Both the position numbers and the translations under genes were made by a program. Below are positions 3,490 to 35,514 of a stretch of DNA of 64,000 nucleotides, in pieces. Source of the stretch: Candidatus Cloacimonadales bacterium (GTDB lineage Bacteria > Cloacimonadota > Cloacimonadia > G963667145); NCBI GenBank assembly GCA_965228195.1, contig OZ245797.1:356383-420382 (forward strand). The letters are read 5' to 3'. The notes beneath the pieces are model-generated. The model was not told the origin of the DNA. It saw only the letters and a program-made list of their open reading frames with translations, and searched no databases. Position 1 is the stretch's first letter, and each line of letters begins with the position of its first letter.

Positions 3490-4194
3490 ATGATGATCAG
3501 AAAAATAAAAAAAGAAGAGACCGTAGCCAATATCCTTCATATTTCGGAAAAACTATTTTATGAACAAGGGTATGAAAAAACCTCTATCTCTCAGATCGCC
3601 AAAGAGTGCGGTTTGTCTAAAGGTGCACTGTATCACCACTTTACCTCTAAACAGCAGGTGTTAGAAAAGATCTGTCACAACCATTACGAGTTGCTGAAAG
3701 ATATTTTTTTGCCGATTGTCGCCAAGAGATCTTTGAGTATGTTCGAGCGGTTTTTGCAAATAATGAACATCGCCCGCTCTATGCAGATGAACACGGCAGC
3801 CACCACTTTTGCCAAGAGTGAAAAAGCTGACAACCATTCCCCCGAGAATGCGGCTCTAAATCAGTTATTGAACCAATATCACCAAAAAGTTTACCTGGAG
3901 ATATTCAGCTCTCTTCTGGAAGAGGGCAAAAAAAACCAAGAGTGTTCTTTCCCTTGCTCGTCGCAAACCATAGCCAACCTCGTCTTCAACCTAGACAACG
4001 GCACCAATCAAAGACTAAACCAGATCGTTTACCAAGAAAAATCTTTAAAACAGGAAAAGATGTTAAACGACACCATCGACGGGTTTGTGTTCGCTTTGGC
4101 AAATATTTTGAATATGGACACCCAAAAAATCGAAAAAATGATCTTAGCTACGAAGATGAAAGAGATATACAGATCGATCTTAAAGAAAGGATAA
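3490..4194 (+). CDS. TetR/AcrR family transcriptional regulator
   Basis: N-terminal HTH TVANILHISEKLFYEQGYEKTSISQIAKECGLSKGALYHHFTSKQQVL matches the TetR_N signature. Confidence 0.85.
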   Translation: MMIRKIKKEETVANILHISEKLFYEQGYEKTSISQIAKECGLSKGALYHHFTSKQQVLEKICHNHYELLKDIFLPIVAKRSLSMFERFLQIMNIARSMQMNTAATTFAKSEKADNHSPENAALNQLLNQYHQKVYLEIFSSLLEEGKKNQECSFPCSSQTIANLVFNLDNGTNQRLNQIVYQEKSLKQEKMLNDTIDGFVFALANILNMDTQKIEKMILATKMKEIYRSILKKG

Positions 4195-4197
4195 AGA

Positions 4198-5139
4198 ATG
4201 AATCTCAGAAAAAAAATCGCTTTATTGCTCGTTTTGACAAGCAACTATTTAATAGCCAACGAAAAATCTACCAACTACATTCCGTTGTTTCAGTCCGAAA
4301 ATCTCAATGTGAGTGAGCAAAGCCTCCAGTGCCAAAGTGCCGGCTTTGTCATCGAAAAAGAGAACTTCCTTTTTGTGGGAATTACCTCTTTCACCAAGTT
4401 TGAGCAGCAGCCTCTCTTTGAGTTCCCCAAATCTTATCTGTCAATCGATGTTTTGACCGAGTTCAAAAAGAACAGCTCGGAAATCCTTTTCATCTACAAA
4501 TCTGATGCCGACAAAACCGAAAGCTTCGAGTTGCAAACCTTACAAACGGCTTTGGTTTATGGACACAGATTTATCGACAAAGAAAACTTTCAGCTTGTGT
4601 TCGGTGGAGGTTTAGCCGTAAGCGACTTCGGCATAGAGTGTTCCGATGGCTCCACACTCCCTATGATCCCGGTGCCTTTGCTGAGGATAAACTCACACAA
4701 CCAGCTTTTTACCACTAAGTTCGAGTTTATCACCTCCCCCAATTTGGACATTACTTTTTTGCTGAGCGAACATATCAAAGCGACTTTTGAAGGGAGGTTT
4801 GACCAACTAAGAGACGAGCGAGATCTGCTTTTCGAGAGTAAACTTCACTACCGATTTTTCTCCGCTTCTGATGATCTGGGTGATATTGCCGGCGTGGCTC
4901 TCGGGTTCAAAAACGGCAATCATGGCGCCTTTAATCTGGCTAAAAGAGACAATAAAGAGAACGAAACCTTGGAGATCCAGTACCGCTCCATTTTTGCCGA
5001 GCTAGATTTGACACTGCTAAAACTCTCCGCAGGTCACGCCTTCCAAGGCAGAGAACTTTATCAAGATGGCGAGCAGCTGTCCAAGCAAAATGTTGGTGAT
5101 GGCTACTTCTGGAGCGTGCAAGCGTTATACCAGTTTTAA
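4198..5139 (+). CDS. secreted protein, probably an outer-membrane beta-barrel (hypothetical)
   Basis: Signal peptide MNLRKKIALLLVLTSNYLIANE, alternating amphipathic segments, and a C-terminal ...ALYQF with terminal aromatic Phe typical of OMP beta-signals. Starts 4 nt after the tetR stop. Confidence 0.45.
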   Translation: MNLRKKIALLLVLTSNYLIANEKSTNYIPLFQSENLNVSEQSLQCQSAGFVIEKENFLFVGITSFTKFEQQPLFEFPKSYLSIDVLTEFKKNSSEILFIYKSDADKTESFELQTLQTALVYGHRFIDKENFQLVFGGGLAVSDFGIECSDGSTLPMIPVPLLRINSHNQLFTTKFEFITSPNLDITFLLSEHIKATFEGRFDQLRDERDLLFESKLHYRFFSASDDLGDIAGVALGFKNGNHGAFNLAKRDNKENETLEIQYRSIFAELDLTLLKLSAGHAFQGRELYQDGEQLSKQNVGDGYFWSVQALYQF

Positions 5140-14361: not shown

Positions 14362-14625
14362 TTTTAATTTCTATTTTTTAATTTAACAGAGGAGTTTTTT
14401 TTGCCTAAATTCGCAGTAATTTGCCCTGAAGCTGCGTGATGCATCCTGCGATGCTAACAACAGCTGGGCAAGGACGAGGCAGGGCATTTTTAATTATTAA
14501 CTTTTTTTTAATTTAACAGAGGATTTTTTTTGCCTAAATTCGCAGTAATTTGCCCTGAAGCTGTATATTGTATACTGCGATAGGGGAAATTGCAAAAAAG
14601 TTGGGCAAAAAAAAATCCTCTGTTA
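14362..14625. repeat. tandem about 135-bp duplication downstream of the 5S rRNA, forming long hairpins that include the 5S 3' end
   Basis: ttttaatttaacagagga(g)ttttttttgcctaaattcgcagtaatttgccctgaagctg occurs at 14362-14425 and 14497-14560. aacagaggattttttttgcc (14507-) is complementary to ggcaaaaaaaaatcctctgtt (14604-14625), which overlaps the 5S 3' terminus. Confidence 0.6.
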
Positions 14626-14745
14626 TGGCGGCGTCCTACTCTCCCACACAGTCGCCCGTGCAGTACCATCGGCGCAGACAAGCTTAACTGCTGTGTTCGG
14701 AATGGGAACAGGTGTTGCCTTGTCGCTATAGCCACCATAACAAAG
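14618..14745 (-). rRNA. rrf: 5S ribosomal RNA
   Basis: Reverse complement reads TGTTATGGTGGCTATAGCGACAAGGCAACACCTGTTCCCATTCCGAACACAGCAGTTAAGCTTGTCTGCGCCGATGGTACTGCACGGGCGACTGTGTGGGAGAGTAGGACGCCGCCATAACA, with canonical helix I pairing. Confidence 0.9.
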
Positions 14746-14949
14746 AACTTTAGATTTTGTTAAACTGCAAGAATTAGGCTTTATATTTAGCACTCGTTTT
14801 TTGAGAACCTCACCCTCTCGCAGTGTCATAAACACAGCTTCGGGGTTCGTTTCCCTAAAAAACAAGCACTTTAACAAAATCTAAGCTTTGGCTAATTTAA
14901 CAAATTAACAAATTGTTATAGTAAAAAGTTGGTGAGATATTAAAAAGAA

Positions 14950-17932
<2,983 letters not shown>

Positions 17933-18017
17933 TTATCTCACCACTTCTATAAAATTTCTATTCAAAAGATCGAAAAATATTTTTTGCCGCTGATTGCGAC
18001 TTTTTACTCTAAATAAA

Positions 18018-18093
18018 TGGTGGAGGATAACGGATTCGAACCGTTGACATCTTGCTTGCAAAGCAAGCGCTCTACCAGCTGAGCTAATCCCCC
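18018..18093 (-). tRNA. tRNA-Ala (anticodon TGC) in the 16S-23S spacer
   Basis: Reverse complement GGGGGATTAGCTCAGCTGGTAGAGCGCTTGCTTTGCAAGCAAGATGTCAACGGTTCGAATCCGTTATCCTCCACCA. Cloverleaf with G3:U70 and encoded CCA. Confidence 0.92.
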
Positions 18094-18154
18094 AGCAAAT
18101 TGCTGAAGCAATTTGCAATTAATAGTTTATAATTGACAGTTGATAATTAAGGAG

Positions 18155-18508
18155 CTAACGCACGTTTTTCACCTTTTTGACTATTGCAGTCAAAATTTTG
18201 ATTATCTCTATCAAATCGTTTTTAAGACTAAAAACCTCTTTTTCGCCCAAATATTCACCAGCCAACAAATCGAGCCAATACTCTGTTTCACCAGCCTCTT
18301 TGAGAGCTATCGACAATTTCGAGACAAAATCTCTTTTGCTTTGCGCATTTTGACTTTCCTTGATGTTCGCACCAATCGAAGTCCCGCTTCTCAAAATCTG
18401 CCTCGACAAAACATACTCTTTCTTATCAACATTCAAGCTTTTACACAGCTTCACTATCTTTTTAGCAAACACAAACGCTTTCTCGTAAACGATATTTTTT
18501 CTTATCAT
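18155..18508 (-). CDS. four-helix-bundle protein ('23S rRNA intervening-sequence protein' family, TIGR02436 / PF05635) embedded in the 16S-23S ITS
   Basis: 117 aa from the ATG (the ORF track's TTG start at 18556 is probably upstream read-through). The motifs ...RSGTSIGANIKESQNAQSKRDFVSKLSIALKEAGETEYWLDLL... are typical of this family. It is on the same strand as the rRNAs and has a GGAG RBS. Confidence 0.8.
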   Translation of the reverse strand: MIRKNIVYEKAFVFAKKIVKLCKSLNVDKKEYVLSRQILRSGTSIGANIKESQNAQSKRDFVSKLSIALKEAGETEYWLDLLAGEYLGEKEVFSLKNDLIEIIKILTAIVKKVKNVR

Positions 18509-18606
18509 CTTCCAAATCGCTCCAAGCCCCAAAATAATTGCCTTCACAATTATCAATTATGAATTGTCACTTGATAATTCATTTGACACCAAGAAATGGT
18601 GTCAAA

Positions 18607-18683
<77 letters not shown>

Positions 18684-18745
18684 ATCAGAATAAAAATTAG
18701 GTAGAGTAAACCCAAAGCCAATCGGCTTTTTCTTTTTTCCTTTAA

Positions 18746-20311
<1,566 letters not shown>

Positions 20312-30560: not shown

Positions 30561-30947
30561 TTGACTCTTGCCCCAAAATCAAGACTACTACTTCTTATGA
30601 ACGACAAAGGCGTAAAATACGAAAACATAGCAAGGAAATTCCTGCAAAACAAGGGGTTTGAGATCTTGACCCAAAACTTCTTTTGCTCCCGCGGTGAGAT
30701 AGATATCATCGCCTGGAAAGATCACTGGCTCTGCTTTACCGAAGTGCGTTACCGAGCCCAAAACTTGGAGAGTGCCATCCAGAGCGTCGACAAAAAGAAA
30801 GCGGAAAAAATCAAGCTGGCTGCCCAAAATTTTTTGTGGCAAAACCCTTGGTTTGAGAACTCCAATCTAAGATTCGACCTTGTTGCCATCTCCAAAGACA
30901 AAAAAAGCGGCAAATACTTTATCCAGCACCTAAAAAACTTCTTTTGA
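30561..30947 (+). CDS. yraN: YraN family (UPF0102) endonuclease; likely start at internal Met (30597)
   Basis: KGVKYENIARKFLQNKGFEILTQNFFCSRGEIDIIAWKDHWLCFTEVRYR matches UPF0102. Confidence 0.75.
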   Translation: MTLAPKSRLLLLMNDKGVKYENIARKFLQNKGFEILTQNFFCSRGEIDIIAWKDHWLCFTEVRYRAQNLESAIQSVDKKKAEKIKLAAQNFLWQNPWFENSNLRFDLVAISKDKKSGKYFIQHLKNFF

Positions 30948-30952
30948 AAAAG

Positions 30953-31708
30953 TTAATCGGCACAGTACTCTGCCAAGATTTTCTCGTAGCAAGTTTGACA
31001 AACCTTTTTTCTGCCTAGGCTGCCGTCCAAACACCCCAAGAAACTGACTCTGACCTTGGCGCTTTTGACCCTCACCAGACCAATAAAATGGCGGATAAAC
31101 TTGATCTTGCCGTAGTAGTAAAGGCTATCACGGTTACTCTTATTGACCTTCTTGCCGTTGACCTGCAGGTATTTGATGCAAAACGGAACCACCTTACTGT
31201 GTTGTGCGGCAGCGAAGAGCGAGGCTTTGAACTTCTGCACAGAAGTTCCATCGGAGGTGGTGCCTTCGGGAAAAAGGAAGATCGGCAAGTCGCTATCCAA
31301 CACCCGTTTAGTCGCTTCTATATCGCTCAAAAGCTGACTCTTGTTTCGCCTTTCGATGAAAAGACTACCACCCATAGTTGCCAACAGCGCTTGCAAGATG
31401 TGCTTTTTCAAATCGACCGAGGTGATAAAAAGAGTCGGCATCAGCGAGGCGATGATCACGATATCCAGATAAGACAGATGGTTGCAAACAAACAGGTTAC
31501 CTTGCCTTACGGGCAAATTTTGCAAACCTTTCGTCTGAATACTGATGTGCAACAATCGCAGCGCCCTTTTCGCCCACTTGGAGGTGTTGCGCATAAAAAA
31601 CAAACGCCGCTGATATAGATGCCAGTAGCGAACATATCCCCAAAAGGAGTTGAGAATGTAGGCGACTACATAGAAAAAAAATAAAGAAAGTTTCAGAAGA
31701 TAAATCAT
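30953..31708 (-). CDS. plsC: 1-acyl-sn-glycerol-3-phosphate acyltransferase (PlsC/LPLAT family)
   Basis: HxxxxD box (CNHLSYLD) and FPEGTTS motif. Confidence 0.8.
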   Translation of the reverse strand: MIYLLKLSLFFFYVVAYILNSFWGYVRYWHLYQRRLFFMRNTSKWAKRALRLLHISIQTKGLQNLPVRQGNLFVCNHLSYLDIVIIASLMPTLFITSVDLKKHILQALLATMGGSLFIERRNKSQLLSDIEATKRVLDSDLPIFLFPEGTTSDGTSVQKFKASLFAAAQHSKVVPFCIKYLQVNGKKVNKSNRDSLYYYGKIKFIRHFIGLVRVKSAKVRVSFLGCLDGSLGRKKVCQTCYEKILAEYCAD

Positions 31709-31744
31709 TTTTTAAAATAGTTAGTCACACCATTTTTTTAATTG

Positions 31745-32175
31745 AATTTAAAACCGACATTTCTAATTCCTTATATATCTGTGCTACTTTTTTAGTTACA
31801 CTAAATTACTCAAAGTCCAATCACAAAGTTACTCAATGTTTTTTCTTTCCACAAAAATTAAATTTTATACTTAGTGCATTAACTTCGTAACACTTGGTGC
31901 TACTCTTTTTTTTAGGTTCACAAAGTTACTCAAAGTTGGGACACTAAGTTACTCAATGTTTTTGTTAACATAAAATTAAGTATCAATACTTGGTGACACT
32001 TTGTGCTACTTCTTTTCCAGGTTCACAAAGTTACCCAAAGTCAGAACACAAAGTCACACAATGTTTTTTCTTATCATAAAAATTAAATTTCATACTTCGT
32101 GCTACTTAGTGCATTAACTTCGTGGTACTTCGTGCTACTTTTTCTTTTAGTTACACTAAGTTACTCAAAGTCCAA
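31745..32175. repeat. tandem array (about 3.5 units) of an about 120-bp repeat, left block
   Basis: Each unit is roughly tt(a/g)gtt(a/c)ca(c/a)(t/a)aagttactcaaagtNNNNNcac(t/a)aagttactcaatgtttttNtt(aaca)taaaattaagtatcaatacttggtgacactttgtgctac(t). Each unit contains an internal direct half-site pair CAC(A/T)AAGTTACTCAA(A/T)GT. Confidence 0.7.
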
Positions 32176-32547
32176 TCACAAAACTAAACGCTTTATTCCA
32201 TCTCTTAAAGATTTTTTGTAAAAATTTAACAAAAGTCCAAGTTTGCAATGAACAAATCTCATATAAGTCAGTCCTTGTGCAATATGCTCAACACTAAAAT
32301 CATCTACAACTTTAAGTTCAATAACTACTTTTTTATTTACTAAAATATCTACTCTATATCCGCAATCAAACTTTATACCTTCATAAAAAACAGGGATTTC
32401 AACCTCTTCTTCTGCAATCAATCCTGATCTATTTAGCTCATAAGCCAGCGCTCCTCTATAAACTTTTTCAAGTAAACCAGAGCCCAGTTTTGTATGTACC
32501 TTAAAAGCACAATCTAAAATAATTTTACTAATTTCGTTTTCGTTCAT
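32176..32547 (-). CDS. GxxExxY protein (TIGR04256; PD-(D/E)XK nuclease-like small protein)
   Basis: 123 aa. N-terminal KIILDCAFKVHTKLGSGLLEKVYRGALAYEL contains the eponymous G-x-x-E-x-x-Y motif. Confidence 0.75.
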   Translation of the reverse strand: MNENEISKIILDCAFKVHTKLGSGLLEKVYRGALAYELNRSGLIAEEEVEIPVFYEGIKFDCGYRVDILVNKKVVIELKVVDDFSVEHIAQGLTYMRFVHCKLGLLLNFYKKSLRDGIKRLVL

Positions 32548-32559
32548 AACTTATTACTA

Positions 32560-32880
32560 CTTGAGTATATACTTTTTTTTCAGTTACACTAAGTTACGCA
32601 AAGTTGGAACACTGAGTTACTCAATGTTTTTTTTAACATAAAATTAAGTATCAATACTTGGTGACACTTTGTGCATTAACTTAGTGCTACTTTGTGCTAC
32701 TTTATTTTTAGGTTCACTAAGTTACTCAAAGTTGAAAATCTAAGGCACACAATGTTTTTTCTTATTATAAAAGTTAAGTATAAATACTTAGTGTTACTTT
32801 GTGCATTAACTTGGTGGCACTTTGTGGTACTCCTTAGTTACACAATTTTCAATTTTAAATTATCAACTATCAATTTCCCT
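32560..32880. repeat. tandem array (about 2.5 units) of the same about 120-bp repeat, right block
   Basis: Units at about 32578-32700 and 32700-32835, plus a partial unit running into the valS stop. Confidence 0.7.
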
Positions 32881-35514
32881 CTATTCCAGCCCTGCCAGTA
32901 GCTCGCTCACCTTGTCCATCTTGCCCTTCACCTCGTCGTATTTTCCTTTCTCTTTTTCCACGATCGCCGCCGGAGCACAAGAGGTAAACTTCTGGTTGTT
33001 GAGTTTGCCACAGATAACCTTGAACTCTTTCTCCAGCTTCTGCAACTGCTTTTTCAGCTTGCTCTTCTCTTCTTCCAGATCTACCATGCCGCTCAAAGGC
33101 ATAAAAATCTCCAAGTTCTCCACCACACCTGCTATCGCCTGAGATGGCTTTGACAGGTTCACTGCCACTTGTGGAGCCTCACAATTGGCTAGTAAGACGA
33201 CATACTGGCTATAATCGGCAAACAGTTTGACATCTTTCTGGGCAGAAGCTTTGATCAAAATCTTGACCTTTTGAGCTGGGGACAAACCCACCTGCTTCTT
33301 GAGATTGCGGATAGTGGTGATCGCCGCCTGAATGCAGTCCATATCGGCGATAATCTGCTCATCAATCTGGGACTTTTCGCACTTGGGGAACTCTGCCACG
33401 GTAACCACTTCGGCTAAATCGGAGAGATACTCCTTGATCTTGGCAAAGATCTCTTCGGTGATAAAAGGCATAATCGGGTGCAAGAGTCGCATAGATTTTT
33501 GCATAATATCCAAAAGCACGAACTGGACGGTGTTCTTTCGTTTGGCATCATCACCATACATCCTCTCTTTGGACAGCTCCAGATACCACGAGCAAAACTC
33601 TTTCCAGATAAAATCTATCAAGCAGGCGGCAACATCGTTAAACCTTAGCTTTTCATAATTTTCCTCGACCTGCTTTGTCACCTTTGCAAACCGCGCGTAG
33701 ATCCATCTATCGGCTAGCTCCAGCTGCAGATTGTCTTTATCGGGAGCCGAGTTTATATCTTGCAAGATGTAGCGAGTGGCGTTCCAAAGCTTGTTGGTGA
33801 AGTTCCTGCCCGTCTCCAAAATCTTGTGCGAGTAATAACTATCCTCACCTTTGGGCGTGTGGTAGATGATGGCAAAACGCAAAGCGTCGGCTCCCACCTG
33901 CTCGATCAAATCCAGCGGATTAGGCGAGTTACCCAAAGATTTGCTCATCTTCCTACCTTGCTCGTCGCGCACTATTCCGTGCAACAACACCGTATCGAAA
34001 GGAATGGTGTTTTTAAACTCCAAGGTGGTCATTATCATCCTGGCAACCCACAAGTAGATGATCTCGGGGGCAGTTATCAGCACATTGGTCGGCAAAAAAT
34101 ATTGCAAATCGTCGGTCTCTTGGGGCCAGCCCAAGGTAGAAAAAGGCCACAAAGCCGAAGAGAACCAAGTGTCCAAAACATCCTCGTCTTGACGGAACTT
34201 CTGGCAACCACACTCGGGACAACTTTGCGGAGCCGATTTTGCCACGACGATCTTCCCACAACTCTCACAGTAGTAAGCAGGTATCCGATGACCCCACCAT
34301 ATTTGCCGAGAGATGCACCAGTCACGCACATTCTCCATCCAGTGCAGATAAACTTTCTTCCATCTAGCTGGCTGAAACTCAATCTCGCCGCTTTTCACTT
34401 TTGCGATAGCCGGAGCCGCCAACGGTTTCATATCCACAAACCATTGATCCGACAAGAACGGCTCGATGGTGGTATCACAACGATAACATTTGCCCACCGT
34501 GTGCGGATAATCTTCGGTTGCGCCCAAAACCCCCTCTTTAGCTAAAAGCTCTAACACCTTCTGGCGAGCCGCTTCTCTGCTCAAGCCAACAAACTCTGCT
34601 CCTGCCTCGGCACTCATCTTGCCGTGCTCATCGATGATGCTGATCGTCTCCAGATGGTGGCGTTGCCCGATCTCAAAATCGTTAGGGTCGTGCGCCGGGG
34701 TTATCTTCAGGCAACCGGTGCCAAAAGCGGTGTCCACATAATCGTCCGCTATAACGGGAATCTCTTTGTGAACGATGGGCAAAACAACTTTTTTGCCGAT
34801 CAAGTTTTTATACCGCTCATCGCCAGGATTTACTGCCACGGCGGTGTCTGCCATCATCGTCTCGGGTCTGGTGGTGGCGATCGTCACAAAGCCGCTTCCG
34901 TCTGCCAGCGGATACCGAACTTCGTAAAGTTTACCGGCTTCCTCTTTGTGCTCCACCTCGTCGTTGGCTAGAGCGGTAGTGCAGCGCGGACACCAGTTGA
35001 TGATGCGCTTCCCTTTGTAAATCAGCCCCTTCTCATAAAGGCGAATAAACACCTCTTTGACTGCCTGCGAGAGCCCTTCGTCCATGGTGAACCTTAGCCT
35101 CGACCAGTCGCACGAACAGCCCAGCTGTTTGAGTTGCTCCAAGATCGTCCCGCCTTTGTCCTCTTTCCACTTCCAAATCCTCTTGATCAGATCTTCTCTG
35201 CCCACATCGAAGCGCGTCTTACCCTCTTTGGCAATCTCTTTTTCGACCATGTTTTGGGTAGCAATACCGGCGTGATCGGTGCCGGGTATCCAAAGAGCGT
35301 TAAACCCTTTCATCCTTTTGTAACGCACCAAGATGTCTTGTAAGGTGTTGTTCAACACATGCCCCATATGCAAGACGCCAGTCACATTCGGCGGCGGGAT
35401 AAGGACAGTAAAAGGCTCTTTATCTTCGTTTGGCTTTGGCGAAAAATATCCATTATCTTGCCAAATCTGATACCATTTCTTCTCAATATCTTGGGGATTA
35501 TAAGCTTTCTGCAT
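32881..35514 (-). CDS. valS: valyl-tRNA synthetase
   Basis: 877 aa. HMGH (VLHMGHVLN) and KMSKS motifs, and a C-terminal coiled-coil. Confidence 0.95.
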   Translation of the reverse strand: MQKAYNPQDIEKKWYQIWQDNGYFSPKPNEDKEPFTVLIPPPNVTGVLHMGHVLNNTLQDILVRYKRMKGFNALWIPGTDHAGIATQNMVEKEIAKEGKTRFDVGREDLIKRIWKWKEDKGGTILEQLKQLGCSCDWSRLRFTMDEGLSQAVKEVFIRLYEKGLIYKGKRIINWCPRCTTALANDEVEHKEEAGKLYEVRYPLADGSGFVTIATTRPETMMADTAVAVNPGDERYKNLIGKKVVLPIVHKEIPVIADDYVDTAFGTGCLKITPAHDPNDFEIGQRHHLETISIIDEHGKMSAEAGAEFVGLSREAARQKVLELLAKEGVLGATEDYPHTVGKCYRCDTTIEPFLSDQWFVDMKPLAAPAIAKVKSGEIEFQPARWKKVYLHWMENVRDWCISRQIWWGHRIPAYYCESCGKIVVAKSAPQSCPECGCQKFRQDEDVLDTWFSSALWPFSTLGWPQETDDLQYFLPTNVLITAPEIIYLWVARMIMTTLEFKNTIPFDTVLLHGIVRDEQGRKMSKSLGNSPNPLDLIEQVGADALRFAIIYHTPKGEDSYYSHKILETGRNFTNKLWNATRYILQDINSAPDKDNLQLELADRWIYARFAKVTKQVEENYEKLRFNDVAACLIDFIWKEFCSWYLELSKERMYGDDAKRKNTVQFVLLDIMQKSMRLLHPIMPFITEEIFAKIKEYLSDLAEVVTVAEFPKCEKSQIDEQIIADMDCIQAAITTIRNLKKQVGLSPAQKVKILIKASAQKDVKLFADYSQYVVLLANCEAPQVAVNLSKPSQAIAGVVENLEIFMPLSGMVDLEEEKSKLKKQLQKLEKEFKVICGKLNNQKFTSCAPAAIVEKEKGKYDEVKGKMDKVSELLAGLE

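Follow-up and report, generated by a model that had tools for sequence, protein, structure and literature searches.

A GxxExxY nuclease gene with inverted repeat arms and gene-less hairpin units between valS and plsC: a candidate nuclease-plus-repeat module

Why should an AT-rich array of tandem repeats, split by the gene of a small GxxExxY nuclease, lie between valS and plsC? The locus is part of a 64-kb window (64,000 nucleotides, contig OZ245797.1, positions 356,383 to 420,382) from a Candidatus Cloacimonadales bacterium. An earlier note on this DNA described the array and offered three roles for it: a tandem binding-site array, a satellite associated with a selfish nuclease-like gene, or a small RNA (sRNA) array. 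The array itself is real. The 18-mer CACWAAGTTACTCAAWGT, with up to three mismatches, has 11 matches in the window, all of them within 31799–32803. The expected number is 0.26, and no shuffle reached 11. Exact matches to the underlying 8-mer family number 42 in the window, 31 of which fall within 31809–32826. The reading that we favor, with some reservation, is that the array is a local cluster of hairpin units of a conserved two-part module, a nuclease plus its repeats. This module would be a counterpart of the REP/BIME-RAYT systems (repetitive extragenic palindromes, bacterial interspersed mosaic elements, and REP-associated tyrosine transposases).

The array lies in a low-GC island (31709–32880; about 30% GC, where the flanks have about 48%). 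It occupies 31784–32830 and is made up of six full units and a degenerate stump, where about seven units had been counted before. Five units are gene-less (105–130 bp) and one is gene-bearing (433 bp). Periods of 105–130 bp were obtained with Tandem Repeats Finder and with a repeat finder. The features are as follows.

31784–31905: unit 1, without an open reading frame (ORF); forward arm 31799–31839 (4 copies), AT-rich spacer 31840–31868, inverted arm 31869–31899, T-rich linker; family D4, forward arm 97% identical to that of unit 4.
31906–32010: unit 2, without an ORF; forward arm 31919–31959, spacer, inverted arm 31988–32005; family D2, 92% identical to unit 5.
32011–32140: unit 3, without an ORF; forward arm 32024–32064, spacer, inverted arm 32094–32134 (4 copies); family D3, 82% identical to unit 6.
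32141–32573: unit 4, gene-bearing; intact arm 32154–32171, 4 nt past the stop codon, then the ORF, then a decayed arm 32548–32573 just upstream of the ATG.
32176–32547, minus strand: GxxExxY/PDDEXK_3 nuclease gene of unit 4, 123 residues (PF13366, E = 1.4e-38; TIGR04256 GxxExxY, E = 4.6e-39).
32574–32701: unit 5, without an ORF; forward arm 32587–32627, spacer, inverted arm 32656–32696 (4 copies).
32702–32830: unit 6, without an ORF; forward arm 32715–32755 (second half decayed), spacer, inverted arm 32786–32826 (4 copies).
32831–32880: one more forward arm, reduced to a degenerate stump, with the junction to the stop codon of valS; weak, AT-rich, read from the sequence.

The basic repeat is an 8-mer, which reads CACNAAGT or CTCAAWGT on the plus strand and is present in two to four copies per arm. 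The 8-mers are paired at a 10-bp phase, and two pairs stand 23 bp apart, start to start, not about 25 bp as first noted. Each unit runs from a forward arm through an AT-rich spacer of 28–30 nt to two to four reverse-complement copies (ACTTNGTG) in the same phase, and ends in a T-rich linker, CTACT-T(n)-AGGTT. The conserved block TACTTGGTGACACTTTGTGCTAC of the earlier note is the reverse complement of the arm motif. This makes each unit an inverted repeat, though an imperfect one, a property that had been overlooked. It is also misleading to describe the gene as if inserted into the array. The gene stands where one unit would have its loop, and this layout (arm, gene, inverted arm; written >G<) is found in 31 of 78 loci of the family, more often than any other. 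At their outer ends the arms often read GTAG-CAC (or GGAG-CAC), for example at 32005–32011 of the window (GTGCTAC on the plus strand) and at two loci of the comparison below, L107 (134–140) and L005 (4171–4177).

The units of the window are arranged only in tandem and are 60–97% identical to one another. Their resemblances form a mosaic (unit 1 with 4, 2 with 5, 3 with 6), which points to block duplication and recombination between units. No target-site duplication is visible at these units, and terminal repeats sought at the ends of the island gave only weak AT-rich matches. On the coding strand, the 3′ side of the hairpins carries an A-rich run, such as AACCTAAAAAAAAGAG or AAACAAAAAAAAG, just before the ATG of the next gene (window 31784–32830; L107 548–795). 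The opposite strand therefore has a T-run after each hairpin, which is terminator-like for antisense transcription. Judged from this layout, the hairpin units may block antisense transcription and let sense transcription pass.

The protein encoded in unit 4 belongs to the GxxExxY family by both profiles (132.3 bits against a cut-off of 22 for PF13366, and 133.4 bits against 35 for TIGR04256). The expected nuclease residues are present: E27 of the GxxExxY motif, D67, E77-x-K79, and Q91xxxY95. None of these varies among 36 close homologs. AlphaFold gives a confident model (pLDDT 94), whose fold is nearest to the cores of Cas4, Dna2, and restriction nucleases. Thus, both the catalytic residues and the predicted fold are those of a PD-(D/E)XK nuclease. 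A sequence search of solved structures gave no real match. The protein is 70–86% identical to proteins of Flavobacterium and Bacteroidales, the closest homolog being that of L107 (86%). Proteins of 250–295 residues with two GxxExxY domains in tandem also occur (P0229, P0231, P0232, P0234, and others), which suggests that the single-domain proteins work as dimers. The family is large, with 14,807 cluster representatives at 50% identity (E ≤ 1e-3). A survey of the PD-(D/E)XK superfamily gives the function of PF13366 as "Unknown" and mentions "multiple transfers". A phage or defence link was considered and rejected. Relatives of the nuclease were not found on viral contigs, only 8 plasmid records match the family, and scans with PADLOC and PHROGs gave only marginal partial matches, so this is not a known defence family.

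The ORF takes the spacer position of unit 4. The decayed arm before its start codon reads GTATATACTCAAGTAGTAATAAGTT-ATG in the window, compared with GTAGCACAATGTTTCATAAAGTATCACAATGTT-ATG in L107. The layout of unit 4 is the same in the close homologs L016/L009, L107, L024, and L025.

The association of gene and arms extends to the whole family. A metagenome scan gave 80 loci with homologs 41–79% identical to the window protein, and the loci of closer relatives were added by look-up. The 100 nt upstream of the gene were compared with the 100 nt downstream, and an inverted repeat was scored at z > 3. By this test, 67% of 78 loci (41–86% protein identity) have an inverted repeat across the GxxExxY gene, with a median z of 8.2, whereas 2.9% of 70 neighboring control genes do (median z 0.24). 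On the coding strand, two to four forward copies of the motif usually stand 0–8 nt before the ATG, and reverse-complement copies 0–9 nt after the stop codon. The core of the motif is C(A/G)CAAAG (also given as C(A/G)CNAAG), and an arm consists of two to four tandem copies of a motif of 8–10 nt. The variant CACNAAGT is found in a Flavobacteria-like group, to which the window protein belongs. Most other lineages have CGCAAAG, as TTAACGCAAAGGCGCAAAG...ATG and TAA...CTTTGCGCCTTTGCGTTAA. Of 73 non-redundant loci, 42 have CGCAAAG at least twice in their flanks and 16 have CACAAAG; the background density is 0.11 motifs per 70 nt. Detectable arms are missing from only 5 of the 78 loci (.G.). No gene other than GxxExxY was found between arms in about 100 loci, and the nuclease is the sole component that always accompanies the arms.

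The cassettes are oriented with their neighbors. The upstream neighbor is on the same strand as the cassette in 59 loci and on the opposite strand in 5; for the downstream neighbor, these numbers are 53 and 14. The arms leave no space for a promoter before the ATG, which suggests expression by read-through, and the gene is apparently promoterless. At some loci, such as L021 (TAG-CACAAAGT), the beginning of the arm and the stop codon of the upstream gene overlap.

Gene-less units are not peculiar to the window. Such hairpin units adjoin genes in L107, L018–L027, and others. At L107, the gene is followed by two gene-less units with 11-nt loops, and among the orthologous topoisomerase loci L019–L026 the number of gene-less units varies. 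A genome scan with the half-site pair of the window found 13 loci in Bacteroidota, Kapaibacterium, and other metagenome-assembled genomes (MAGs). Twelve of these are intergenic arrays without a GxxExxY gene in the fetched DNA; the remaining one, L009, is arm-gene-arm. We also considered that gene-less spacers are relics of gene ends left by internal deletion. This was not supported: when the spacers were aligned locally to both ends (5′ and 3′) of seven genes, z stayed below 3 in every case. One MAG labelled Hyphomicrobiales (CAZBNQ01; L003, L004, L010, L013, L014) has nearly the same arrays and flanking genes as a Kapaibacterium MAG (L005, L011); in L010 and in L005, for instance, the array has the same gene end on its upstream side. 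The near identity of the arrays indicates that the label is probably a binning or naming error.

Cassettes are found between pgk and tpiA (L061–L086, soil contigs), between the genes of the topoisomerase B and A subunits (L019–L026, Flavobacteria-like contigs), and between valS and plsC. The identities of the flanking genes were confirmed by Pfam. We calculated the ratio of nonsynonymous to synonymous substitution rates (dN/dS) for 12 pgk-tpiA cassettes, for 7 topoisomerase B-A cassettes, and for the window with its closest relatives. The values in the three sets are 0.044, 0.057, and 0.066, with dS at 1.2–1.9. In the pgk-tpiA set, the mean pairwise identity is 81–82% in the arms, 85% at first codon positions, 46% in the outer flanks, and 35% at fourfold-degenerate sites. 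The difference between arms and fourfold-degenerate sites means that the arms are functional, and not merely recent duplicates. Both the gene and the arms are under purifying selection, and selection on the arms is about as strong as that on first codon positions.

These results suggest how a nuclease-plus-repeat module might be built and might work. Its first part would be a compact, apparently promoterless nuclease gene with a Cas4/RecB-like PD-(D/E)XK core and with inverted arms at its start and stop codons. The second part would be the gene-less units (arm, short loop, arm), either beside the gene or in arrays of their own. They would stand to the gene as REPINs and BIMEs do to RAYTs, or miniature inverted-repeat transposable elements (MITEs) to transposons. 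The window would then hold one gene-bearing and five gene-less units in the valS–plsC slot, co-directional with both genes. The nuclease, probably as a dimer, would recognize the duplex arm motif, whether in ordinary DNA or in an extruded hairpin. It might nick or cut at the arms, and copying of the cassette and its gene-less derivatives would be promoted in this way. The gene would be expressed by read-through from the host operon, and the tandem array would have grown by recombination between arms. The presence of the motif family-wide and in both orientations argues for recognition of the duplex by a protein over pairing alone. From the sequence comparisons, we infer that the nuclease acts on the arms. 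The binding-site array proposed earlier is a possible role, with the nuclease itself as the likely binder.

A broader form of this reading is tentative, and we would call it possible rather than likely. It takes the GxxExxY nuclease and its arms as a previously unrecognized and very widespread class of element, the PD-(D/E)XK counterpart of REPIN-RAYT. The C(A/G)CAAAG duplex would be recognized by the nuclease, which would itself drive gene-less units to be copied or maintained, and the promoterless cassettes would persist nested in essential operons.

Several observations weigh against such a module. Within the window the array motif is confined to the valS–plsC locus, which gives no sign of dispersal in the 64 kb of host genome covered. 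The cassettes at pgk-tpiA and at the topoisomerase genes stayed in place while synonymous sites became saturated, which fits a function in situ as well as or better than ongoing mobility. Neither a target-site duplication nor an empty site was defined for any arm-bounded cassette. The arrangement of the arms is not uniform. In 11 of the 78 loci the arms on both sides point in the same direction (<G<; a gene-less hairpin abuts the gene), in 8 they are divergent (<G>), and in 23 they are one-sided or mixed (17 one-sided). The period of the motif is 8–9 nt in the CGCAAAG lineages and 10–13 nt in the window, so there is no fixed helical phasing for simple binding to one face. A one-face model with a 10-bp helical repeat was rejected, as the period is 8–9 nt in most lineages. 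Finally, no paper on the function of the GxxExxY family was found in the literature searched. The literature on the family, the motif, and REP/RAYT in Bacteroidetes likewise gave no description of the arm flanks.

One relative of the window cassette has moved, and it bears on the same point. The proteins P0003 and P0004 are 82–83% identical to the window nuclease. Each is encoded with identical amino acids in several unrelated contexts, seven in all, in one sample. Alignment of the seven copies (L100–L106, about 3918–4603) revealed a sharp-edged element of about 685 bp, the copies of which share an identity of at least 99%. It ends in inverted repeats, GTAATTGTTCAAAAATAAACAGTACA at one end and GTGTCCGTTCAAAAATAACCGATACA, written as the reverse complement, at the other; these match at 19 of 26 positions. 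It is flanked by TTA or TAA (TWA), and the two flanks agree in six of the seven copies. Two older copies are 91–92% identical (L100 898–1515; L105 5569–6190), giving at least nine copies in sample ERZ26859043. The element carries the GxxExxY cassette together with a duplicated copy of the cassette's 5′ leader. With terminal inverted repeats, a duplication, and dispersed near-identical copies, it has the hallmarks of a MITE. It is a non-autonomous transposon that carries the cassette and probably needs a transposase in trans. Its ends (GTAATTGTTCAAAAATAA...) differ from the motif arms, which lie inside the element, and this, too, counts against mobility through the arms. The window lacks these terminal repeats; its match to the 685-nt query slice is limited to positions 53–452, which cover the gene and the beginning of the 3′ arm.

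The main rival explanation is an element that acts in RNA, like the intervening sequences of 23S rRNA. The arms would pair round the ORF within the transcript of the host operon; the stem would be processed (for example, by RNase III) or would control translation of the nuclease, and the gene-less units would stabilize or insulate messages. We consider this rather unlikely, while taking it seriously. It agrees with arms that abut start and stop codons and are kept in place over long periods, with the orientation bias towards the flanking genes and the location within housekeeping operons, and with the lack of a terminator-like site on the coding strand of the island (there is one such site on the plus strand, antisense to the genes). 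Several units also fold better than shuffles (unit 2, −21.3 kcal mol−1, z −2.8; unit 5, −32.1, z −4.9; unit 3, the best hairpin, −38, z −5.95), but two of the five gene-less units fold no better than chance (unit 6, z −0.2; another, z −1.3). The arm stem of 30 pairs is 90.7% paired across 10 orthologous cassettes, compared with 90.3% in column-composition shuffles, and the observed pairing and covariation were reached by 191 and 155 of 500 shuffles, respectively. Mismatches in the arms show no excess of G-U on either strand (54 G-U-type against 65 A-C-type, p 0.36), and transversions are common. A specific motif is kept family-wide instead of compensatory drift, and in about a third of the loci (<G>, <G<) the arms are unable to enclose the ORF. 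Rfam gave nothing relevant, either for the island at a permissive threshold or for 20 loci and the whole window at the gathering threshold. A structured RNA or sRNA family thus finds no support, nor does the sRNA array of the earlier note, for which only the one plus-strand terminator-like site was seen.

It is improbable, in our view, that an enzyme encoded elsewhere uses the arms as its recombination or transposition sites, with the GxxExxY gene as cargo and the gene-less units as ordinary MITEs. The 685-bp element, which carries the gene to at least seven sites with terminal repeats and TWA duplications, speaks for such an enzyme, and minimal PD-(D/E)XK nucleases are not known to catalyze strand transfer. 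However, the terminal repeats of that element are not motif arms. The arms accompany this one gene family, and no other gene, over 41–86% protein identity and several phyla, and they are conserved at loci where the cassette stayed in place; no gene of a recombinase is present within about 3.5–5 kb of the window array. Host regulatory sites, either promoters or arrayed operators bound by a protein of the host, are very improbable. The copies of the motif are regularly phased, and the Bacteroidetes promoter consensus is TAnnTTTG at −7 and TTTG at −33. The reverse complement of the window 18-mer contains TAACTTTG, which fits TAnnTTTG. This fit is absent from most variants in the family, such as CGCAAAG and CACAAAGTTTCAC; a Bacteroidetes-type promoter was therefore rejected, and the motif is not the ordinary promoter motif that the earlier note had allowed for. 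The host is probably not a member of Bacteroidota, sigma-70-type sites in the island are fewer than in shuffles (2 against 5.1), and the motif tracks the gene across hosts and not any host regulon. We give hardly any credence to a neutral AT-rich satellite that is beside the nuclease gene by chance. The base composition and the unit mosaic, which is consistent with unequal crossing-over, would suit it. It does not explain arms conserved at 81% against 35% at neutral sites, or an architecture that recurs far more often in the family than around control genes. Nor do relatives share the same array without the ORF, which the earlier note had envisaged for such a satellite. Three of them hold unrelated cargo and one a single gene-less unit. 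Among the three roles first offered, a satellite associated with a selfish nuclease-like gene came closest. The association stands, as gene and inverted arms form a family-wide module with gene-less units in many genomes; the interpretation as a whole is only partly supported.

The genes near the array are plsC, a YraN-family gene, mutS2, and valS. The immediate neighbors, and the cargo found in the same slot in relatives, are as follows.

30561–30947, plus strand: UPF0102/YraN-family gene, adjoining plsC.
30953–31708, minus strand: gene of a PlsC-type acyltransferase (PF01553, E = 8e-19), downstream neighbor, on the same strand as the cassette.
32881–35514, minus strand: valS (domains tRNA-synt_1, Anticodon_1, and Val_tRNA-synt_C), upstream neighbor, on the same strand as the cassette.
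L096, 2300–5904: an AAA/nSTAND3 gene and an S8 peptidase gene.
L097, 1–5999, and L098, 786–6004: pieces of type I restriction-modification systems with a FokI/Mrr-like or KilA-N gene.
L099, 4966–5890: an ion-channel gene and, immediately before the start of plsC, one gene-less unit.

The YraN-family gene is kept beside plsC in L096, L098, and L099 and is therefore not part of the island. Its family is likewise placed in the PD-(D/E)XK superfamily. The host PlsC is 59–71% identical to the proteins of five relatives, followed by a Chitinivibrionales protein at 42%. In the host lineage, the valS–plsC gap is a hot spot where the cargo varies, and it looks like a defence-island slot. The GC content of the island and the 70–86% identity of its nuclease to proteins of Flavobacterium and Bacteroidales point to horizontal acquisition. 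The island probably came by transfer from a low-GC, Bacteroidota-like donor, and the arms travelled with the gene. The ENA contig ctg21945_97x_l (L001/L002; 18,282 bp) contains the window locus twice in mirror order (SIMPL ... mutS2, plsC, GxxExxY, truncated valS | GxxExxY, plsC, mutS2 ...). This duplication looks like a fold-back assembly chimera of long reads, not biology.

If the module exists as proposed, it would give a role to a family of about 14,800 clusters (50% identity) that has no known role. Arm conservation and gene-less arrays together provide a concrete hypothesis, namely that the arms are the substrate or the operator of the nuclease. It would also explain a class of odd AT-rich intergenic tandem repeats in Bacteroidota and their relatives. 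Placing small cassettes inside essential operons (pgk-tpiA, the topoisomerase subunit genes, valS–plsC) would be a possible strategy of persistence. Specificity for a sequence or a structure, if the nuclease proves to have it, could make this small protein (123 residues) useful as a programmable-context nuclease.

Several known systems resemble parts of this arrangement. The ORF-bearing intervening sequences of 23S rRNA genes (Leptospira, Coxiella, and others) likewise have a small ORF within complementary flanks, inside an essential and highly transcribed unit and in the same orientation. In contrast, the cassettes here are between protein-coding genes, their arms carry a conserved repeated motif, and no RNA-specific signal was found. 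A 23S intervening sequence in the window itself was rejected. The rRNA operon (14623–20311, minus strand; 16S, tRNA-Ile, tRNA-Ala, 23S, 5S) is complete, and its 23S gene (14951–17917) is intact, matching the Rfam model end to end (positions 1–2925). Integron cassettes, too, are compact ORFs without promoters, which are co-oriented and have imperfect inverted repeats at their borders, and ORF-less cassettes are possible in their arrays. They differ in that the GxxExxY cassettes have repeats on both sides of the ORF that are mutually inverted, and are solitary inside housekeeping operons. An integron array was rejected, since no integrase is encoded within 3.5–5 kb and no attI is nearby; the arms are not attC-like by eye, a judgement made without a formal attC scan. 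With Cas4/RecB-type nucleases, only a core of about 95 residues aligns; the four-cysteine cluster is missing, and so are cas genes and a CRISPR array. The window array is not a CRISPR array either, as the earlier note had rightly said. Its units measure 105–130 bp, the "spacers" are conserved between units, and the neighbors are those listed above, with no cas genes nearby. A plasmid-type iteron or centromere array was rejected because the context is chromosomal and no rep or par genes are nearby.

A further comparison is with MITEs (Correia, ERIC, Tourist-type). They, too, are ORF-less inverted-repeat units with hairpin potential that occur in intergenic regions beside an ORF-bearing version. 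Elements of the IS5/PIF-Tourist type have terminal repeats and a 3-bp TWA duplication, and L100–L106 represents a true non-autonomous element with both. The window units differ: they have no visible target-site duplication, their spacers are not demonstrable gene relics, the protein is not a DDE transposase, and the arms are conserved at fixed loci.

The REP/BIME-RAYT systems are the proposed counterpart, with differences. The GxxExxY gene encodes a PD-(D/E)XK protein of 123 residues (PF13366) and not an HUH/Y1 transposase, and in this respect it is no RAYT. Its arm is a run of two to four tandem motifs of 8–10 nt that is not itself a palindrome and that abuts the start or stop codon, and the GxxExxY family is often multi-copy. 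The outer arm end GTAG-CAC recalls the GTAG-tagged REP superfamily, and this may be a coincidence. There are also likenesses. In both, inverted copies of a short repeat stand on either side of one nuclease-type gene, and gene-less doublets form hairpins. As in BIMEs, there are tandem arrays of alternating orientation with two kinds of conserved linker, and these are extragenic and lie between co-directional genes. RAYT genes are retained vertically over long periods under purifying selection, and the dN/dS and arm data indicate the same for GxxExxY. The combination that characterizes these systems, inverted copies flanking the gene and gene-less doublets or arrays elsewhere, is found in the GxxExxY family.

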